In this document: positions 4,710 through 16,741 of the stretch, in pieces | How positions within the stretch are numbered: the first letter of the stretch is position 1 | How the letters are laid out: every line of letters starts with the position of its first letter | Assembly: GCA_963555815.3 (NCBI GenBank) | Contig: CAUVWX020000001.1 | Span: 672,001-736,000, forward strand | Direction: 5' to 3' | DNA: 64,000 bases | Source: a bacterium | Lineage (GTDB): Bacteria > UBA8248 > JACPRG01 > G963555815 | Notes under the pieces: generated by a model | What the model was told of the DNA's origin: nothing | Seen by the model: only the letters and a program-made list of their open reading frames with translations | The model's database searches: none | Made by a program: the position numbers and the translations under genes

Positions 4710-4893
4710 CCTGATCGGCGTCTCACACTTCCTCCACAGCTCAATCTAGCACCTCGCCAAGCGGGCGTTTTCCCTCTTCTGTTGGGCCGCCAGGGGCCCC
4801 TCAATTTTTCAGAAAAAACGGTAGTGGGTCGTTTTGATTGATTAATTAACGTGTTCGAGGGGGGGGGTGTTTTGAAAGGTTTTAGGGATCGTT

Positions 4894-4918
4894 AGTGCGT
4901 TATGCCGCTTAACGCACT
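4894..4918 (-). terminator. Hairpin downstream of doc gene
   Basis: AGTGCGTTA-N7-TAACGCACT 9-bp inverted repeat; no clear U tract. Confidence 0.45.
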
Positions 4919-4934
4919 TCGGAGAGCACGTTTT

Positions 4935-5375
4935 TCAAGGTCTAGCAAAGTCCCGCAAGGAACACCTTGGAGACAGCCACTCTTCGAATTCTTCTTTTCC
5001 CGTCTGTCCGTCTGCAATTTGAAGGAAAACCGCCGCAATTTCGCCTTGTTTGGCGTCTAATGAATATCCGTTTAAGCCCAGGAAACGGACTACACTGAGG
5101 GCGGCAATCCTCTTGTTGCCATCATTAAATGCGTGGGCTTGGCAGACATGAAATTCATAGGCAGCAGCCATCCCAAGAGGGAAAGAGTGTAAATATTCAC
5201 CGCCTGATGTAGCCCTCGCTTGGTGGATTGCGCTCTCAAGGGCGTTTCGATCTCTTAGCCCTGGCATTCCTCCAAATTCTTCAATAGCTGTCAAATGGGC
5301 CCCTATAACGTCTTCAATAAACAAAAAAGCGGGGCCGTAGCTTCTCACACGACCCCGCCCCGTTAAAACCATCAA
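4935..5375 (-). CDS. doc: Doc/Fic family toxin
   Basis: GGMPGLRD..LESA and Doc-type motif HAFNDGNKRIA; exact start uncertain. Confidence 0.88.
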   Translation of the reverse strand: MMVLTGRGRVRSYGPAFLFIEDVIGAHLTAIEEFGGMPGLRDRNALESAIHQARATSGGEYLHSFPLGMAAAYEFHVCQAHAFNDGNKRIAALSVVRFLGLNGYSLDAKQGEIAAVFLQIADGQTGKEEFEEWLSPRCSLRDFARP

Positions 5376-5376
5376 A

Positions 5377-5928
5377 CTAAAGATTTGCTAGGCTTTTAAA
5401 ATCTTCTCGGTATTTCTCTAGGCTCTCCTTGGTTACTTTCTCAAGAATTGCCTTTCGTCTGCACGCCATAGTCCCAACAATGTCTATACATTCATACTGC
5501 TTGGCCTTTACCATCGGTAGAGTAGAGTAGACATACTTAACGAATCTGCCCCACGGAAGCCTCCATGTGTCCTCAATAACCTTTCTTAGCACAATCTTTT
5601 CCTCGTTTGTAAGGGCTTCAGCGACAACCTGCTTTTGGAGATCGGTGGCTTTCCACTCATACCACCGCTTTTTATCGCCATACATGGTGACATCTTCGTG
5701 GATTTCAATCTTCTTCCCATCAAGAGACTCCACATAGGAATCACCGGCCCCAACAAATGGGCCATGGTTGTTAAAAATCCACCTTGTTTGCGTGAGTTGC
5801 TCTCCATTTCCCCACGCCCATTCAACATCTAGCAAGTAAATGAGCTTATCGAGCCTACCGCTCGTAAGCTCTTGGGGTCTGGGGTATTCTGAGACCAAGA
5901 AATCCACTAAGTCCGAGAATCTCGCCAC
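5377..5928 (-). CDS. Panacea (DUF4065/SocA-like) antitoxin with C-terminal Phd-like helix
   Basis: RLDKLIYLLD...W..NNHGPF...YVYSTLPM pattern; RBS GGAGGTG; coupled directly upstream of doc. Confidence 0.75.
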   Translation of the reverse strand: MARFSDLVDFLVSEYPRPQELTSGRLDKLIYLLDVEWAWGNGEQLTQTRWIFNNHGPFVGAGDSYVESLDGKKIEIHEDVTMYGDKKRWYEWKATDLQKQVVAEALTNEEKIVLRKVIEDTWRLPWGRFVKYVYSTLPMVKAKQYECIDIVGTMACRRKAILEKVTKESLEKYREDFKSLANL

Positions 5929-6039
5929 GGTTCGTCACCTCCACACTATTAATTTGGTAGATGGCGGTGAGGCACGTCAATAGCTTTTTCGCACTATGTA
6001 AAAAATATGGATTATTTTCTGCGTATCTATTAACACGCC

Positions 6040-6522
6040 ATGCCTCGGGGTCTATATTGTTTCTCAGCGTTTGACCTATTGGTAACCGGAGTGGATCCAA
6101 TAACTTTCAATGAGTCCGTAAAGAGCCAGATCGAAGTCCTCGCGGCTGGGGAGGCCCATATTCTAAGCACGATTGCTCCCCTACAAAAGGAGCTTGAGGA
6201 GATCAGGGCTCGGATGAACCACCTAGAAGGTTATTTGGCTGCCCTTGATTCGGGTGAGGCGCAAAAGGGCCTGAAAGAGAAAGAGCCCATAACGGATAAG
6301 ATTGTCCGTGTATTCGAAAGAGAAAAGCGTCCTCTTCACTACCTGGAGGTCTTGTCTTTGCTTAGGGAGCAGGAGGGGTTTGTTATGACTGGAAAAGACC
6401 CAAAGGCAAATATGACAGCAAAGCTAGCAGGAAGTGCAAGGTTTAGCCGTCTCGACCGTGGTATTTACGTTCTCACAGAGTGGACCAAACAAAATCAAAG
6501 AAAAGCCCCGCAGGAGGACTAA
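6040..6522 (+). CDS. Coiled-coil plus winged-HTH (HARE-HTH-like) protein
   Basis: N-terminal coiled coil, then PLHYLEV...GKDPKANMTAKL...RFSRLDRGIYVL; true start possibly GTG at about 6091. Confidence 0.65.
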   Translation: MPRGLYCFSAFDLLVTGVDPITFNESVKSQIEVLAAGEAHILSTIAPLQKELEEIRARMNHLEGYLAALDSGEAQKGLKEKEPITDKIVRVFEREKRPLHYLEVLSLLREQEGFVMTGKDPKANMTAKLAGSARFSRLDRGIYVLTEWTKQNQRKAPQED

Positions 6523-6536
6523 CCGTGCGGGGCTTT
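6502..6536. terminator. GC-rich hairpin at end of HTH gene
   Basis: AAAGCCCCGCA...TGCGGGGCTTT 11-bp inverted repeat. Confidence 0.55.
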
Positions 6537-6548
6537 GAAATTACTGGT

Positions 6549-6639
6549 GGATAGGGATAGGGGATAGTTCCCCTCGGGGACTTAAAATCCCACATAGTAT
6601 CCGGGCGGATATGCGGTTCGATTCCGCCCCTCTCCACCA
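6549..6639 (+). tRNA. Non-canonical 8/4 allo-tRNA-like gene, anticodon TAA
   Basis: Acceptor GGATAGGG/CCCTCTCC (8 bp, 1 mismatch); D-stem AGGGGA/TCCCCT with 4-nt loop; anticodon arm GGGA-CT[TAA]AA-TCCC; variable stem GTATCC/GGATAT; 4-bp T-stem GCGG-TTCGATT-CCGC; discriminator A plus CCA. Confidence 0.8.
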
Positions 6640-6810
6640 CCACAATATTTTTGGGTGGGCCTCAGCGGTAACTGAGGCCCCTGGCAACACCGCTTGGGAT
6701 GTGCCCCCTAGCGATGCACCCACCCTCTGACGAATTTAGGCTAAATCCCTCGATTCGTCAAGCATCCAACGGCGGGCATCACTCCCAGGCCCTTTTGGGA
6801 GTGCCTACCG

Positions 6811-7635
6811 ATGAACGTCCTGCCACTCAAGCGCAAGGCCCTGGTCCTGTCTGCCATTACCGAGGGCACCTCTATTCGGGGGGCCTCTCGGCTAACCGGC
6901 GTCCAGAAAAACACCATCATCAAGCTTATCTGCGACACAGCTGAGAAATGCTGGGCCATTTCAGACAGTAAACTCAATGGAATACAGGCAAACGATCTTC
7001 AATGTGATGAGCTTTGGAGCTTTGTCGGGAAAAGGGACAAGAGACTCTACGGCCACGAGAGGCCCTATCTCGGCAGCCAGTTCATCTTTGTGGCCCTTGA
7101 GGCTCAGACAAAACCGATCCCCTGCTTCACCGTTGGGAAGCGTGATCTCTATACAGCAACCAAATTTATGCGGGATCTAAGAAAAAGGGTCTCAGGTCGG
7201 CCTCAACTCACGACAGACGCCTTCCAGGCATATCACACAGCTGTCCGCTTAGCCTTTGGGTCCGACGTGGACTATGCTCGGCTGGCTAAATCCTTTGCCA
7301 ACAACGGGACCCCAAGGCGGGAAGGCTATGCCCCATCTGATTTCAGGGCGATTAAGCCTGTCGTAATTAGCGGGAACCCCGACCCAAATAAAATCTCAAC
7401 CTCTTACGTTGAAAGGCAAAATTTGACGCTGCGGATGCAGATGCGTAGGTTTACCAGATTAACCAACGCCTTCAGTAAAAAGCTCCCAAACCTTAGGGCT
7501 GCGCTATGGCTTCACTTCACCTACTACAATTTTTGCAGGGTGCATCAGATGCTGGGGGTTACTCCGGCTATGGCCTCAAATATTTCCGATTACCCCTGGA
7601 ATTGGAGGGAAATTCTGTCGTGGCAAGCCCAATAA
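6811..7635 (+). CDS. IS1-family DDE transposase (single ORF)
   Basis: N-terminal HTH (SIRGASRLTGVQKNTI); DDE motifs CDELWSFVGK, TTDAF, STSYVERQNLTLR; RRFTRLTNAFSKK. Confidence 0.88.
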   Translation: MNVLPLKRKALVLSAITEGTSIRGASRLTGVQKNTIIKLICDTAEKCWAISDSKLNGIQANDLQCDELWSFVGKRDKRLYGHERPYLGSQFIFVALEAQTKPIPCFTVGKRDLYTATKFMRDLRKRVSGRPQLTTDAFQAYHTAVRLAFGSDVDYARLAKSFANNGTPRREGYAPSDFRAIKPVVISGNPDPNKISTSYVERQNLTLRMQMRRFTRLTNAFSKKLPNLRAALWLHFTYYNFCRVHQMLGVTPAMASNISDYPWNWREILSWQAQ

Positions 7636-7709
7636 GGGACCGCAGAAAAGGGGCGCCTTTTATCCACCAGGAAAACGACCCACTACCGAAAAAACCTGTT
7701 GAAAAGTCT

Positions 7710-7738
7710 TTGATAAGGCGCAGTGCTTGCGGTATAAT
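7710..7738 (+). promoter_or_regulatory. sigma70-type dnaA promoter
   Basis: TTGATA-17 nt-TATAAT. Confidence 0.7.
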
Positions 7739-7862
7739 GGTATAGGTTTGAGAGAGCGTCCCCTGCCGAGTAAAAAGCGGCCCTTTCATAATGTTTTCAG
7801 AACCGACCTTCAGCTTTATAGCACCTACAGGGAAAACCTGGGGCGGAAGGGCCTCCGGAAAA

Positions 7863-7882
7863 GTTTCCACATCTGTTGATAA
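7863..7882. promoter_or_regulatory. Pair of DnaA boxes upstream of dnaA
   Basis: GTTTCCACA (7863-7871) and TGTTGATAA (7874-7882), each 8/9 to TTWTNCACA. Confidence 0.6.
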
Positions 7883-7945
7883 TCTGTTTGTGTGTGTGTT
7901 TTTAGGTAGATGTACCGTGTTGGCCTGGGGGATTTACACAGCATA

Positions 7946-14905: not shown

Positions 14906-15041
14906 GGAGATCTTACGGCCCCCCCGGCCGCCGAAGGCGGAAGGCCCCTAAAGTCAATGGGAAAGAGAGGCCTTGCCGTTGACGGCGTCAATGCTCAATG
15001 TTAGCATGAGGGAGAACTTCGAAGGAAGGAATTCAAGGTCT

Positions 15042-16481
15042 ATGCTGGACATTAAGGCGATTCGCGAGGACCCGGATGGGTTTCAATCCGCCCTGGGCCG
15101 AAGGGGGGAGGGCTTTGATCTCTCCCAGGTCCTGGCGCTGGACGCTCGTCGTCGCGCACTCATCTCAGAGATTCAGACGCTCAAGGCGAAGCAAAAGGAG
15201 ATCTCTCGGACAATAGCCATCCCGCCGACAGGAGTTTCACCGGTTGGAGAACCGCCGCAGCCTGAGGAGGTAACCGGGGCAATCAGGGAACAGGCGAGGG
15301 CTTTGGCGGCGGAGGTGTCGGATACCGAGGGGAAGCTTCGCGCCGTCGAGGAAGATCTTCGGTCGGCCCTTCTTGAGATCTCGAACCTCCCCCACCCTTC
15401 CGCCCCCATGGGAAAAAGCGCGGAAGACAATGTGGAGGTTCGGCACTGGGGAGACCCCCCCAACTTTTCTTTTGAGCCCAAGGACCATGTCGTCATTGGG
15501 GAGCGGCTGGACATCATTGACTTCAAGCGGGCGGCCAAGATGGCCGGGGCCCGGTTCGCCGTCATGAAGGGGCTGGGAGCCGCCTTGGAAAGGGCCCTCT
15601 TGAATTTCATGCTGGACATGCACACCCGAAGGCATGGCTACACAGAGGTCCTCCCCCCCTTTCTGGTGAACGCGGAGAGCATGGAGGGGACTGGACAGCT
15701 GCCGAAGTTTGAGGGGGACCTGTTCAAGGTGGACGGGGGGGCGTTCTACCTGGTCCCTACGGGGGAAGTGCCGGTCACGAACATCCACCGGGAGGAGATC
15801 TTGAACGAGTGCAACCTCCCCGTGAAATATGCCGCCTACACCCCCTGCTTTCGGCGGGAGGCCGGCTCCTATGGAAGCGAGACCCGAGGGCTGATTCGCC
15901 AGCACCAGTTCAACAAGGTGGAGCTGGTGAAGTTCACGACCCCGGAGAGTTCGCATGACGAGCTGGAGAGCTTGACGAACGATGCCGAAGAAGTGCTGAG
16001 AAGGCTGGAGCTCCCCTTCCGCGTGGTGACGCTCTGCACGGCGGATCTTGGCTTTGCGGCGACCAAGACCTACGACATTGAGGTGTGGCTCCCCTCCCAG
16101 AAGGCCTATCGGGAGATCTCTTCGTGCAGCAATTTTGAGGCTTTTCAGGCACGGCGAGCGGGGATACGCTTCAAGCGGGAAGGGGGGAAACCCGAGTTTG
16201 TCCACACGCTGAATGGCTCCGGCCTCGCTATTGGGAGGACCGTTGTGGCCATCCTGGAGAATTTTCAGCAGGAGGACGGAAGCGTCATCATCCCAGAGGG
16301 TCTTCGGCCTTACATGGGTGGGGCCGCCGTCATCTCCCGGGGAAAGGGGAGTGCGAGCCCCTCTCGATCCGGGAAGCCGGCGGAGGCGCGCCAAGACCCT
16401 CCGAGAAAGCCTTCGAGGGATGCGACCCCTGCGAGGGGCGCAACCCCTTCTGCGAAAAACCCGGGTGCGAAGGGGAAATGA
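15042..16481 (+). CDS. serS: Serine--tRNA ligase
   Basis: MLDIKAIRE start, [39 protein letters not shown]. Confidence 0.97.
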
Positions 16482-16495
16482 GGAGCTTTCGGAAT

Positions 16496-16587
16496 GGAGG
16501 GATGGCCGAGCGGCTGAAGGCGGCGGTCTTGAAAACCGTTAGGGCCCGAGAGGACCCTCGGGGGTTCGAATCCCTCTCCCTCCGCCA
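16496..16587 (+). tRNA. tRNA-Ser (TGA)
   Basis: GGAGGGA...CT-TGA-AA anticodon loop, long variable arm, GGTTCGAATCC, ends GCCA. Confidence 0.95.
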
Positions 16588-16649
16588 AGAAGACAGCCCC
16601 GCATAGCGATTTCTGGAGCCAGGGCGGCCATTCTGGTGGCCCCGCAAGT

Positions 16650-16741
16650 GGAGAGGTGGCCGAGCGGCCGAAGGCACTCGCCTGCTAAGCGAGTGACCGC
16701 AGCAATGTGGTCCGAGGGTTCGAATCCCTCTCTCTCCGCCA
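16650..16741 (+). tRNA. tRNA-Ser (GCT)
   Basis: GGAGAGG...CT-GCT-AA anticodon loop, long variable arm, GGTTCGAATCC, ends GCCA. Confidence 0.95.

Follow-up and report, generated by a model that had tools for sequence, protein, structure and literature searches.

The window analysed here, a stretch of 64,000 nucleotides of bacterial DNA, contains a genuine allo-tRNA gene with a UAA (Leu) anticodon, an A73 variant of an RNA class that is already known, in which only A73 is unusual. The gene is carried by a clearly bounded transposon of the IS1 type, and the evidence for a link between such genes and the transposase gene comes from the level of the element family, while the charging of the tRNA is predicted from its sequence. 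Taken together, IS1-type cargo elements from many bacterial phyla may carry an interchangeable tRNA of mistaken identity, together with a matching codon that has co-evolved at fixed, sensitive sites of the transposase gene, and the two may form a translational switch that works by deliberate mistranslation, with the window gene as its UAA member. We put this forward tentatively, as a real possibility and not as an expectation.

Structure and classification of the allo-tRNA gene

The cloverleaf was the minimum-energy fold of the 91-nt gene (z = -3.04; 1 of 200 shuffles was equally stable), and the 8/4 model (-36.3 kcal/mol) was more stable than the 7/5 (-31.7) and 9/3 (-33.2) models, with gaps of 4.6 and 3.1 kcal/mol, respectively. 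Folding thus confirmed the complete cloverleaf that a first-pass annotation had proposed, with its 8-bp acceptor stem, 6-bp D-stem, long variable arm, 4-bp T-stem, A73 and encoded CCA, and its assignment to the 8/4 allo-tRNAs with a non-Ser anticodon was also right. Of the features of that class, a 12-bp acceptor branch split 8/4, a Sec-like long D-stem with a tetraloop (6 bp and 4 nt) and a long variable arm were found. The G73 or U73 that is typical, but not universal, among allo-tRNAs is replaced by A73.

The gene shares with tRNA-Sec (RF01852) the long D-stem with a tetraloop and the long variable arm, and it scored 50.4 bits with the Rfam model, just over the cut-off of 47; ARAGORN made no call at 6549-6639. 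However, the gene differs from tRNA-Sec in having a 12-bp instead of a 13-bp branch, UAA instead of UCA as its anticodon, and A73, and the host tRNA-Sec gene lies elsewhere. The Sec score is no proof of a Sec origin, because the ordinary tRNA-Leu(UAA) of the host scored 48 bits with the same model and its true tRNA-Sec 73.6 bits. A Sec origin of the anticodon arm was rejected, since the arm is identical to that of the host tRNA-Leu(UAA) at 15 of 15 bases; the earlier remark that the anticodon is one base from the Sec TCA is correct as to its letters but uninformative for the same reason. The anticodon stem of allo-tRNAs is longer than canonical; here no more than 4 of its pairs are of the Watson-Crick type, and the G:A pair noted earlier at its top (G28:A44) is about equal in energy to a bulged A44 with a G28-C45 pair.

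Comparison of sequencing runs revealed allelic variation. Position 6552 was a G in 5 of the 6 covering runs (X2, X3, X5, X6 and X8) and a T in X1 only, and X2, which comes from the same sample as X1, has the G; the window may derive from these two runs. The majority allele completes the acceptor stem, with 8 of 8 pairs; the U4:C69 mismatch that had been raised as a caveat is a minority allele or an error. Similarly, the absence of GG from the D-loop holds for the TAGT of the window but not for runs X6 and X8, from two other studies, in which position 6566 is a G (2 of 6 runs) and the loop reads TGGT. A73 was constant in X1, X2, X3, X5 and X6 among the differences listed (16 of 17 for X6).

The closest homolog is a sister gene (L086/L092; L084 is the same as L092), which keeps all acceptor, D and T pairs; two of the six pairs in its D-stem and one of the four in its T-stem carry compensatory changes. 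The sister gene differs in having G73 and an irregular UAG loop, and A73, A18 and U4 of the window copy each deviate from it. A pattern scan of metagenomes gave 1 match (L086), two patterns run on viral contigs gave none, and blastn against plasmids and phages revealed no homolog. A search of 61 genomes yielded one true homolog beyond the gene's own copy (L084) and one match to the T-arm of a canonical tRNA. With a looser pattern in 401 + 351 genomes, the matches were mainly the D-loop of ordinary tRNA-Ser genes, with one real match (L208); a tightened pattern in 401 genomes gave 4 matches, namely L249, L250, L251, which is a tRNA-cluster locus without an IS1 transposase match, and L252, a probable ordinary tRNA-Leu. 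No second 8/4 UAA gene was found in the metagenomes, viral contigs, plasmids, phages and genomes searched. At the gathering score, Rfam returned nothing in 17 loci, and it is unusable as a detector because these included L005 and L084, which hold allo-type genes. In the acidobacterial genome of L251, we also noted three odd long-arm tRNAs (L251:1500-2300) with UUA, UGA-like and UCA-like loops.

Among the matches listed from the supplement of Mukai et al. 2017 (PMC5389517), 16 rows have a UAA anticodon, of which 15 are 'major' (8/4 by our reading) and one is 9/3, all with G73; the same supplement includes an A73 row of the 9/3 type. In the portions of that work considered here, the 8/4 UAA allo-tRNAs resemble the window gene in their 8/4 branch, long D-stem with a tetraloop, long variable arm, Leu anticodon and toxin-antitoxin or transposon neighbours, and they differ from it in having G73 instead of A73. 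The same portions of the text, figures aside, place allo-tRNAs near toxin-antitoxin systems and report one overlap with a transposon-related gene, but give neither element ends nor a codon link.

The IS1-type element and its cargo

The tRNA gene lies inside a 2,868-bp IS1-type element (4820-7687), the features of which are collected in Table 1. An empty site with a single copy of the duplicated 8 bp is present in G001, a genome of the same genus, and the element occurs in one copy only in its own genome. The inverted ends match at 16 of 16 bp, an 8-bp duplication flanks them and passenger genes lie between them, so that the element agrees with the transporter IS (tIS) of the IS1 family, which, in the part of the source considered (PMC9330008), likewise have a single DDE transposase, short inverted ends, an 8-bp duplication and passenger genes. 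It differs in that its passengers include a mismatched tRNA and a conserved structured leader. The best NCBIfam match of the transposase was IS1 (NF033558), at 64.8 bits, below the cut-off of 100. ISMhu11 is the name of a tIS subgroup within the IS1 family. The setting of the tRNA as transposon cargo, with its codon apparently tied to the transposase gene, was absent from the first-pass annotation.

Table 1. Features of the IS1-type element and of its tRNA gene (window coordinates).
Feature	Position	Strand	Remarks
Left target-site duplication, 8 bp	4812..4819	.	From sequence; single copy in the empty site of G001
Left terminal inverted repeat, 16 bp	4820..4835	+	Perfect match to 7672-7687
Doc/Fic-family toxin gene, cargo	4935..5375	-	Pfam Fic, E 8e-11; TIGR01550 DOC_P1 above cut-off; true start maybe a few codons inside
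Panacea (SocA-like) antitoxin gene, cargo	5377..5928	-	Pfam PF13274 above cut-off
Coiled-coil and HARE-HTH-like gene upstream of the tRNA, candidate regulator	6040..6522	+	Pfam PF05066, E 6e-5, just under cut-off
GC-rich hairpin between HTH gene and tRNA, putatively terminator- or processing-like	6502..6536	.	From sequence
8/4 allo-tRNA gene	6549..6639	+	Anticodon UAA 6583-6585; A73 6636; encoded CCA; alleles at 6552, 6566 and 6596 in other runs
Acceptor stem, 8 bp	6549-6556/6628-6635		CCA 6637-6639
D-stem, 6 bp	6559-6564/6569-6574		Loop TAGT (4 nt)
Anticodon loop, 7 nt	6581-6587
V-stem, 6 bp	6597-6602/6607-6612		Pair probabilities 0.6-0.7
T-stem, 4 bp	6613-6616/6624-6627
Conserved structured leader, tRNA to transposase start	6646..6810	+	Seven-way alignment
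Single-ORF IS1-type DDE transposase, 274 aa	6811..7635	+	Pfam DDE_Tnp_IS1 (PF03400) above cut-off
TTA codon 147 of transposase	7249..7251	+	Variable column
TTA codon 217 of transposase	7459..7461	+	Leu in 135/136 background homologs
Right terminal inverted repeat	7672..7687	-
Right target-site duplication	7688..7695	.	About 215 bp upstream of dnaA (7910)

No synthetase gene was found among the genes between the element ends. A close homolog of the HARE-HTH-like gene occupies the same slot of element L090, and hairpins similar to that before the window tRNA were recognised by eye 5' of the tRNA in L090, L091, L094 and L103. The leader has 24 consensus pairs, 12 of them with changes on both sides, in a seven-way alignment made without a shuffle control, and it showed no Rfam match over 6646-6810. 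This stretch of about 165 nt is conserved in L090, L091, L092, L093, L094 and L099, even though L093 and L099 are without a tRNA, and its last hairpin may cover the ribosome-binding site. A promoter scan stayed at chance level (2 found vs. 1.1 +/- 1.0 expected). The contig of RNA run X18 covers only 5425-5651 and not the tRNA, and contigs cannot show expression.

The surroundings provided further observations. The element lies about 215 bp upstream of dnaA (window 7688-7910) and may affect the dnaA promoter, and contigs from three or more studies (X2, X3, X8 or X6) have it at the dnaA site. Low-depth contigs of run X12 carry a 1-nt deletion at 5300 and a 5-nt deletion at 5517, in the doc and antitoxin genes, which could be explained by errors or by decay of the allele. 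The serS gene, followed by two canonical tRNA-Ser genes (window 14973-16741), is located some 7 kb downstream of the element, a neighbourhood that gave no sign beyond chance.

Cargo anticodons and transposase codons across the family

Relatives of the transposase were collected from genome, viral and handle searches, one of which contributed the best 80 of 570. After the removal of duplicate loci and of transposase stretches <200 aa, collapse at 90% identity reduced 185 entries to 170; one false structural match (L013) was dropped before counting. L027, an ochre-type tRNA locus, and L199, a background locus, come from the unpublished genomes G061 and G099, and no main claim rests on them alone. 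The structural scan gave an upstream match in 35 of 184 loci, compared with 3 of 184 downstream control stretches (269 vs. 207 kb). A tRNA-like gene was found near 34 of the 170 non-redundant transposases, and at least 19 of these 34 genes lie between inverted ends with a duplication. Most of the cargo tRNAs combine a Ser-type (G73, long arm), Ala-type (G3:U70, A73) or Leu-type body with the anticodon of another amino acid, and it is for Ser, Leu and Ala that bacterial synthetases recognise tRNAs without relying on the anticodon. In the focal clade, which has a support of 0.99, the anticodon found in the slot is UAA, UAG (two cases), UAU or UGG, and the slot may also be empty. Weakening features such as C33, 6-nt loops and a missing CCA are common in the set. 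In this connection, G33 has been reported to curb a natural mistranslating tRNA.

Short tRNA-like RNAs of 68-72 nt with G3:U70, A73 and a reduced D-arm lie upstream of the transposase in L011, L016, L043, L044, L065, L107, L121, L153 and L064, mostly with a TAC or TAG triplet at or near loop positions 35-37. The Ser-type UAU tRNA of L091 is directly preceded by a half-tRNA (acceptor and T-arm, CCA, G3:U70), which lies some 310-280 nt 5' of where the transposase begins. Stop-codon anticodons (UUA, CUA, UCA) occur in L027, L146-L149, L168, L196 and L080 with no matching in-frame transposase stop; read-through of a transposase stop by an ochre-type cargo tRNA was rejected, the TAA in the L027 match falling outside the aligned frame.

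The genome of the window contains two more odd tRNAs, both just upstream of a transposase. One (L002:4009-4096, minus strand; G000:C1 981508-981595) has a Leu-type body, a UGG (Pro) loop and C33, and lies in a second IS1-type element with 16-bp ends and an 8-bp duplication, in which all 3 transposase CCA codons fall at columns 168-183. The other (L001:3218-3304, plus strand; G000:C1 814217-814303) has a Leu-type body and a Pro-type loop and lies between an ORF and an IS1595 transposase, at the 3' end of which an exact copy of the focal 16-bp end was found, so the tRNA slot may extend to IS1595; the two CCA codons of the IS1595 element, at 128 and 299, are not comparable to the IS1 columns. A structural scan revealed no tRNA in a third IS1-type copy in the same genome.

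We then compared cargo anticodons with the codons of the adjoining transposases, with columns given in the numbering of the focal transposase. In nine UAC-type RNAs the triplet stands at or near 35-37 and not at 34-36; in the expected-count tests, neither test nor background included the seven cargo RNAs whose anticodons are of the stop type or unclear (L027, L146, L168, L196, L064, L140 and L080), and L103, a near-copy of L097, was left out of the column 156-188 and lineage counts. CTA was found at column 158 in 5 of 6 UAG elements and 5 of 166 others, and at column 217 in 4 of 6 and 16 of 166, respectively. Likewise, GTA stood at column 159 in 9 of 11 UAC-type elements (8 of 160 others), and ATA at the same column in 3 of 5 UAU elements (10 of 166 others). 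Across 29 elements, the codon matching an element's own anticodon was seen 55 times in columns 156-188 against 16.4 expected, and 30 times outside them against 53.3, an interval that was chosen after the data had been seen, with anticodons assigned by hand and kin that are not independent; shuffling of the labels gave p = 5e-5 for these columns. In 16 of 17 lineages, the count exceeded that of the three nearest relatives without that anticodon, and whole-gene counts were mildly raised (86 vs. 67). In nine UAC-type elements, GTA also appeared purged from the rest of the transposase (4 seen vs. 26.5 expected).

Predictions drawn from this link had mixed outcomes. The held-out locus L208, found by the tRNA pattern only, has CTA at 158, 161, 179 and 217, as predicted; for the UAG locus L250, found in the same way, the prediction failed, as its transposase has no CTA; and L249, the third locus found by the tRNA pattern alone, is cut off at the contig end, which left the window element as the only UAA element found with a complete transposase. 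The own codon was absent from columns 156-188 in L123 and L190. The reverse prediction mostly failed: about 40 elements were selected for an internal stop or for a rare codon in one of the columns 158, 159 and 217, none of them with a strict-scan match, and a relaxed scan yielded 6 credible tRNAs (L052, L140, L080, L198, and L017 and L025, which were already ARAGORN calls).

The codon-bearing columns fit the standard amino acid and not Ser or Ala, although polar residues are tolerated at column 159, where Ala would thus not have to do harm. Because of the fit to the standard residue, local recoding of the transposase was rejected, and mis-insertion would damage the protein instead of recoding it. 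The codon match at fixed places of the transposase thus suggests that the tRNA may act as a built-in brake on jumping. The case for the codon link rests on the family and not on the window copy. In the window transposase, TTA accounts for 2 of 26 Leu codons (1.5 expected), at 147 and 217, neither within 156-188, and column 158 holds CTG. TTA at 217, which occurs in 14 of 170 other transposases (p ~0.09), is not significant for the window element alone, but it is in line with CTA217 of the UAG sisters. In the open literature, which leaves most subscription journals outside its scope, we found no description of IS1-borne mismatched tRNAs or of such a codon link.

Predicted charging and possible roles

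The bacterial tRNA-Ser identity elements G1-C72, G2-C71 and long variable arm are present, and the Ser-type acceptor pairs are common to all host tRNA-Ser genes, but A73 replaces the G73 of tRNA-Ser. For tRNA-Leu, A73 agrees, whereas the D-loop elements A15-U48, A20a and G18G19 are missing, the D-loop being a tetraloop with G18 in 2 of 6 runs only; the tRNA-Leu genes of the host have C2 and a Leu-type D-loop. The G3:U70 of tRNA-Ala is replaced by A3-U70. According to the sections considered of one source (PMC9976931), Leu identity in E. coli needs A15-U48, G18G19 and A20a, with A73 as the main Leu determinant, the importance of G73 for Ser is seen in vivo but not in vitro, and bacterial SerRS and LeuRS do not rely on the anticodon. 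The same is stated for bacterial AlaRS in the parts of PMC5389517 considered, which also report that a 9/3 allo-tRNA(UAA) and an 8/4 allo-tRNA(GAG) put Ser at Leu codons in E. coli.

The first-pass annotation had offered two options, leucine supply for UUA codons or serylation with mistranslation of UUA. Serylation is favoured, being suggested by the Ser-type body, the absence of Leu elements and the insertion of Ser by Leu-anticodon allo-tRNAs in E. coli, although A73 argues for weak or mixed charging. Leucine supply is probably the weaker option, because the host has its own tRNA-Leu(UAA), the acceptor pairs are Ser-type, A15-U48 and A20a are lacking and most bodies of relatives mismatch their anticodons.

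On these grounds, the preferred explanation is that the allo-tRNA of the IS1-type transposon acts as a weak missense tRNA that places Ser at UUA and brakes its own transposase, with its charging and expression predicted; we regard this as the best of the readings, though as somewhat less likely than not, and A73 is the main argument against it. The tRNA would be transcribed with the leader and the transposase and cut out by the tRNA-processing enzymes of the host. SerRS would then charge it through the long variable arm and G1-C72/G2-C71/A3-U70, more poorly than a G73 copy and perhaps along with some leucine, and the product would compete with the host tRNA-Leu(UAA) at UUA, perhaps also at UUG by wobble. 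Ser at Leu217, 16 residues past E201, presumably the third catalytic residue, would leave the transposase inactive. Host genes would be largely spared, because TTA makes up 1.9% of host Leu codons; at 2.1 per 1000 in 894 long ORFs, it is the rarest sense codon of the host.

Since Leu identity depends mainly on A73, and base 73 is reported to switch between Leu and Ser in some contexts in the sections considered of PMC9976931, the window copy might instead have been switched to Leu, as a cognate private tRNA for UUA in the transposase and doc or as a detoxified, formerly serylated tRNA. Unlike positions 4 and 18, A73 is stable, the anticodon arm is that of the host tRNA-Leu(UAA), TTA217 falls on a near-invariant Leu, and doc has 4 TTA among 15 Leu codons. 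We consider this explanation unlikely, if worth keeping in view: the host already has a tRNA-Leu(UAA), A15-U48 and A20a have no place in a 6-bp D-stem with a tetraloop, G18 is absent from the window allele, and the G73 sister and Ser- and Ala-type relatives share the codon link without Leu identity. The TTA use of the element (7 of 78 Leu codons) may also owe something to its lower GC.

The RNA might also act without any wrong residue, either on ribosomes, which it would stall, drop or shift when they reach the matching codon, or on the mRNA of leader and transposase, as a signal for its processing. The packing of the own codon into a short interval with depletion elsewhere fits such a role, as do the many relatives whose anticodon loop has 6 nt or is shifted, whose D-arm is short or whose gene does not encode CCA, and the leader conserved even in tRNA-less elements. 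An AAR follows codon 159, NNA_AAG being a known -1 shift motif (PMC5009743, in the part considered), and six variants of allo-tRNA(UAU) showed no activity in translation in E. coli (PMC5389517, parts considered). But no arm is missing from the window copy, whose anticodon loop has the regular 7 nt and whose CCA end is complete, AAR follows neither TTA codon of its transposase, and a pure processing role leaves the anticodon-codon link unaccounted for; we think that this explanation probably does not hold.

Another scenario makes the RNA a toxin or anti-phage effector, whose induced mistranslation of rare NUA codons would harm AT-rich foreign genes or the host, with the transposase link secondary. 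Induced allo-tRNAs arrested and killed E. coli (PMC5389517, parts considered), toxin-antitoxin cargo is present in the window element and in L086, and the five rarest sense codons of the host include TTA, ATA, GTA and CTA, but the fixed transposase columns of the codon are left unaccounted for, which makes this scenario improbable. Equally improbable is a decaying passenger without current function, to which the three departures from the sister gene and the single element copy would point, since U4 and A18 are alleles with intact G4 and G18 in other runs and all stems, the anticodon loop, the CCA and the open transposase frame are kept.

Two other known systems are close to that of the window. 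The bldA tRNA-Leu(UAA) of Streptomyces controls TTA genes as their sole cognate canonical tRNA and turns them on. In both cases a tRNA with a UAA anticodon, in a GC-rich host that seldom uses TTA, would serve to switch translation; in the window, however, the tRNA is additional to a canonical tRNA-Leu(UAA) of the host, and its body is likely not of the Leu type. With tRNA-ProX/ProRSx of Streptomyces and Kitasatospora, as described in the part considered of PMC11415595, the window system would share a body and an anticodon of different identity and an encoded mistranslation; tRNA-ProX has Pro identity and its own synthetase, whereas the window gene is mobile cargo with no synthetase in its element.

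Standard tRNA callers of the ARAGORN and Rfam type overlook or mislabel such genes. Allo-tRNAs mistranslate in E. coli, yet no natural job has been known for them since 2017, and a 2024 review states that little is known of host use of mistranslating tRNAs. The element ends, the empty site and the named transposase codons make the question of function directly testable. If the proposed switch is true, it would be the first natural function for allo-tRNAs and for the wider group of Ser-, Ala- and Leu-bodied mismatched tRNAs, and it would represent an unusual route of self-limitation for an insertion sequence.
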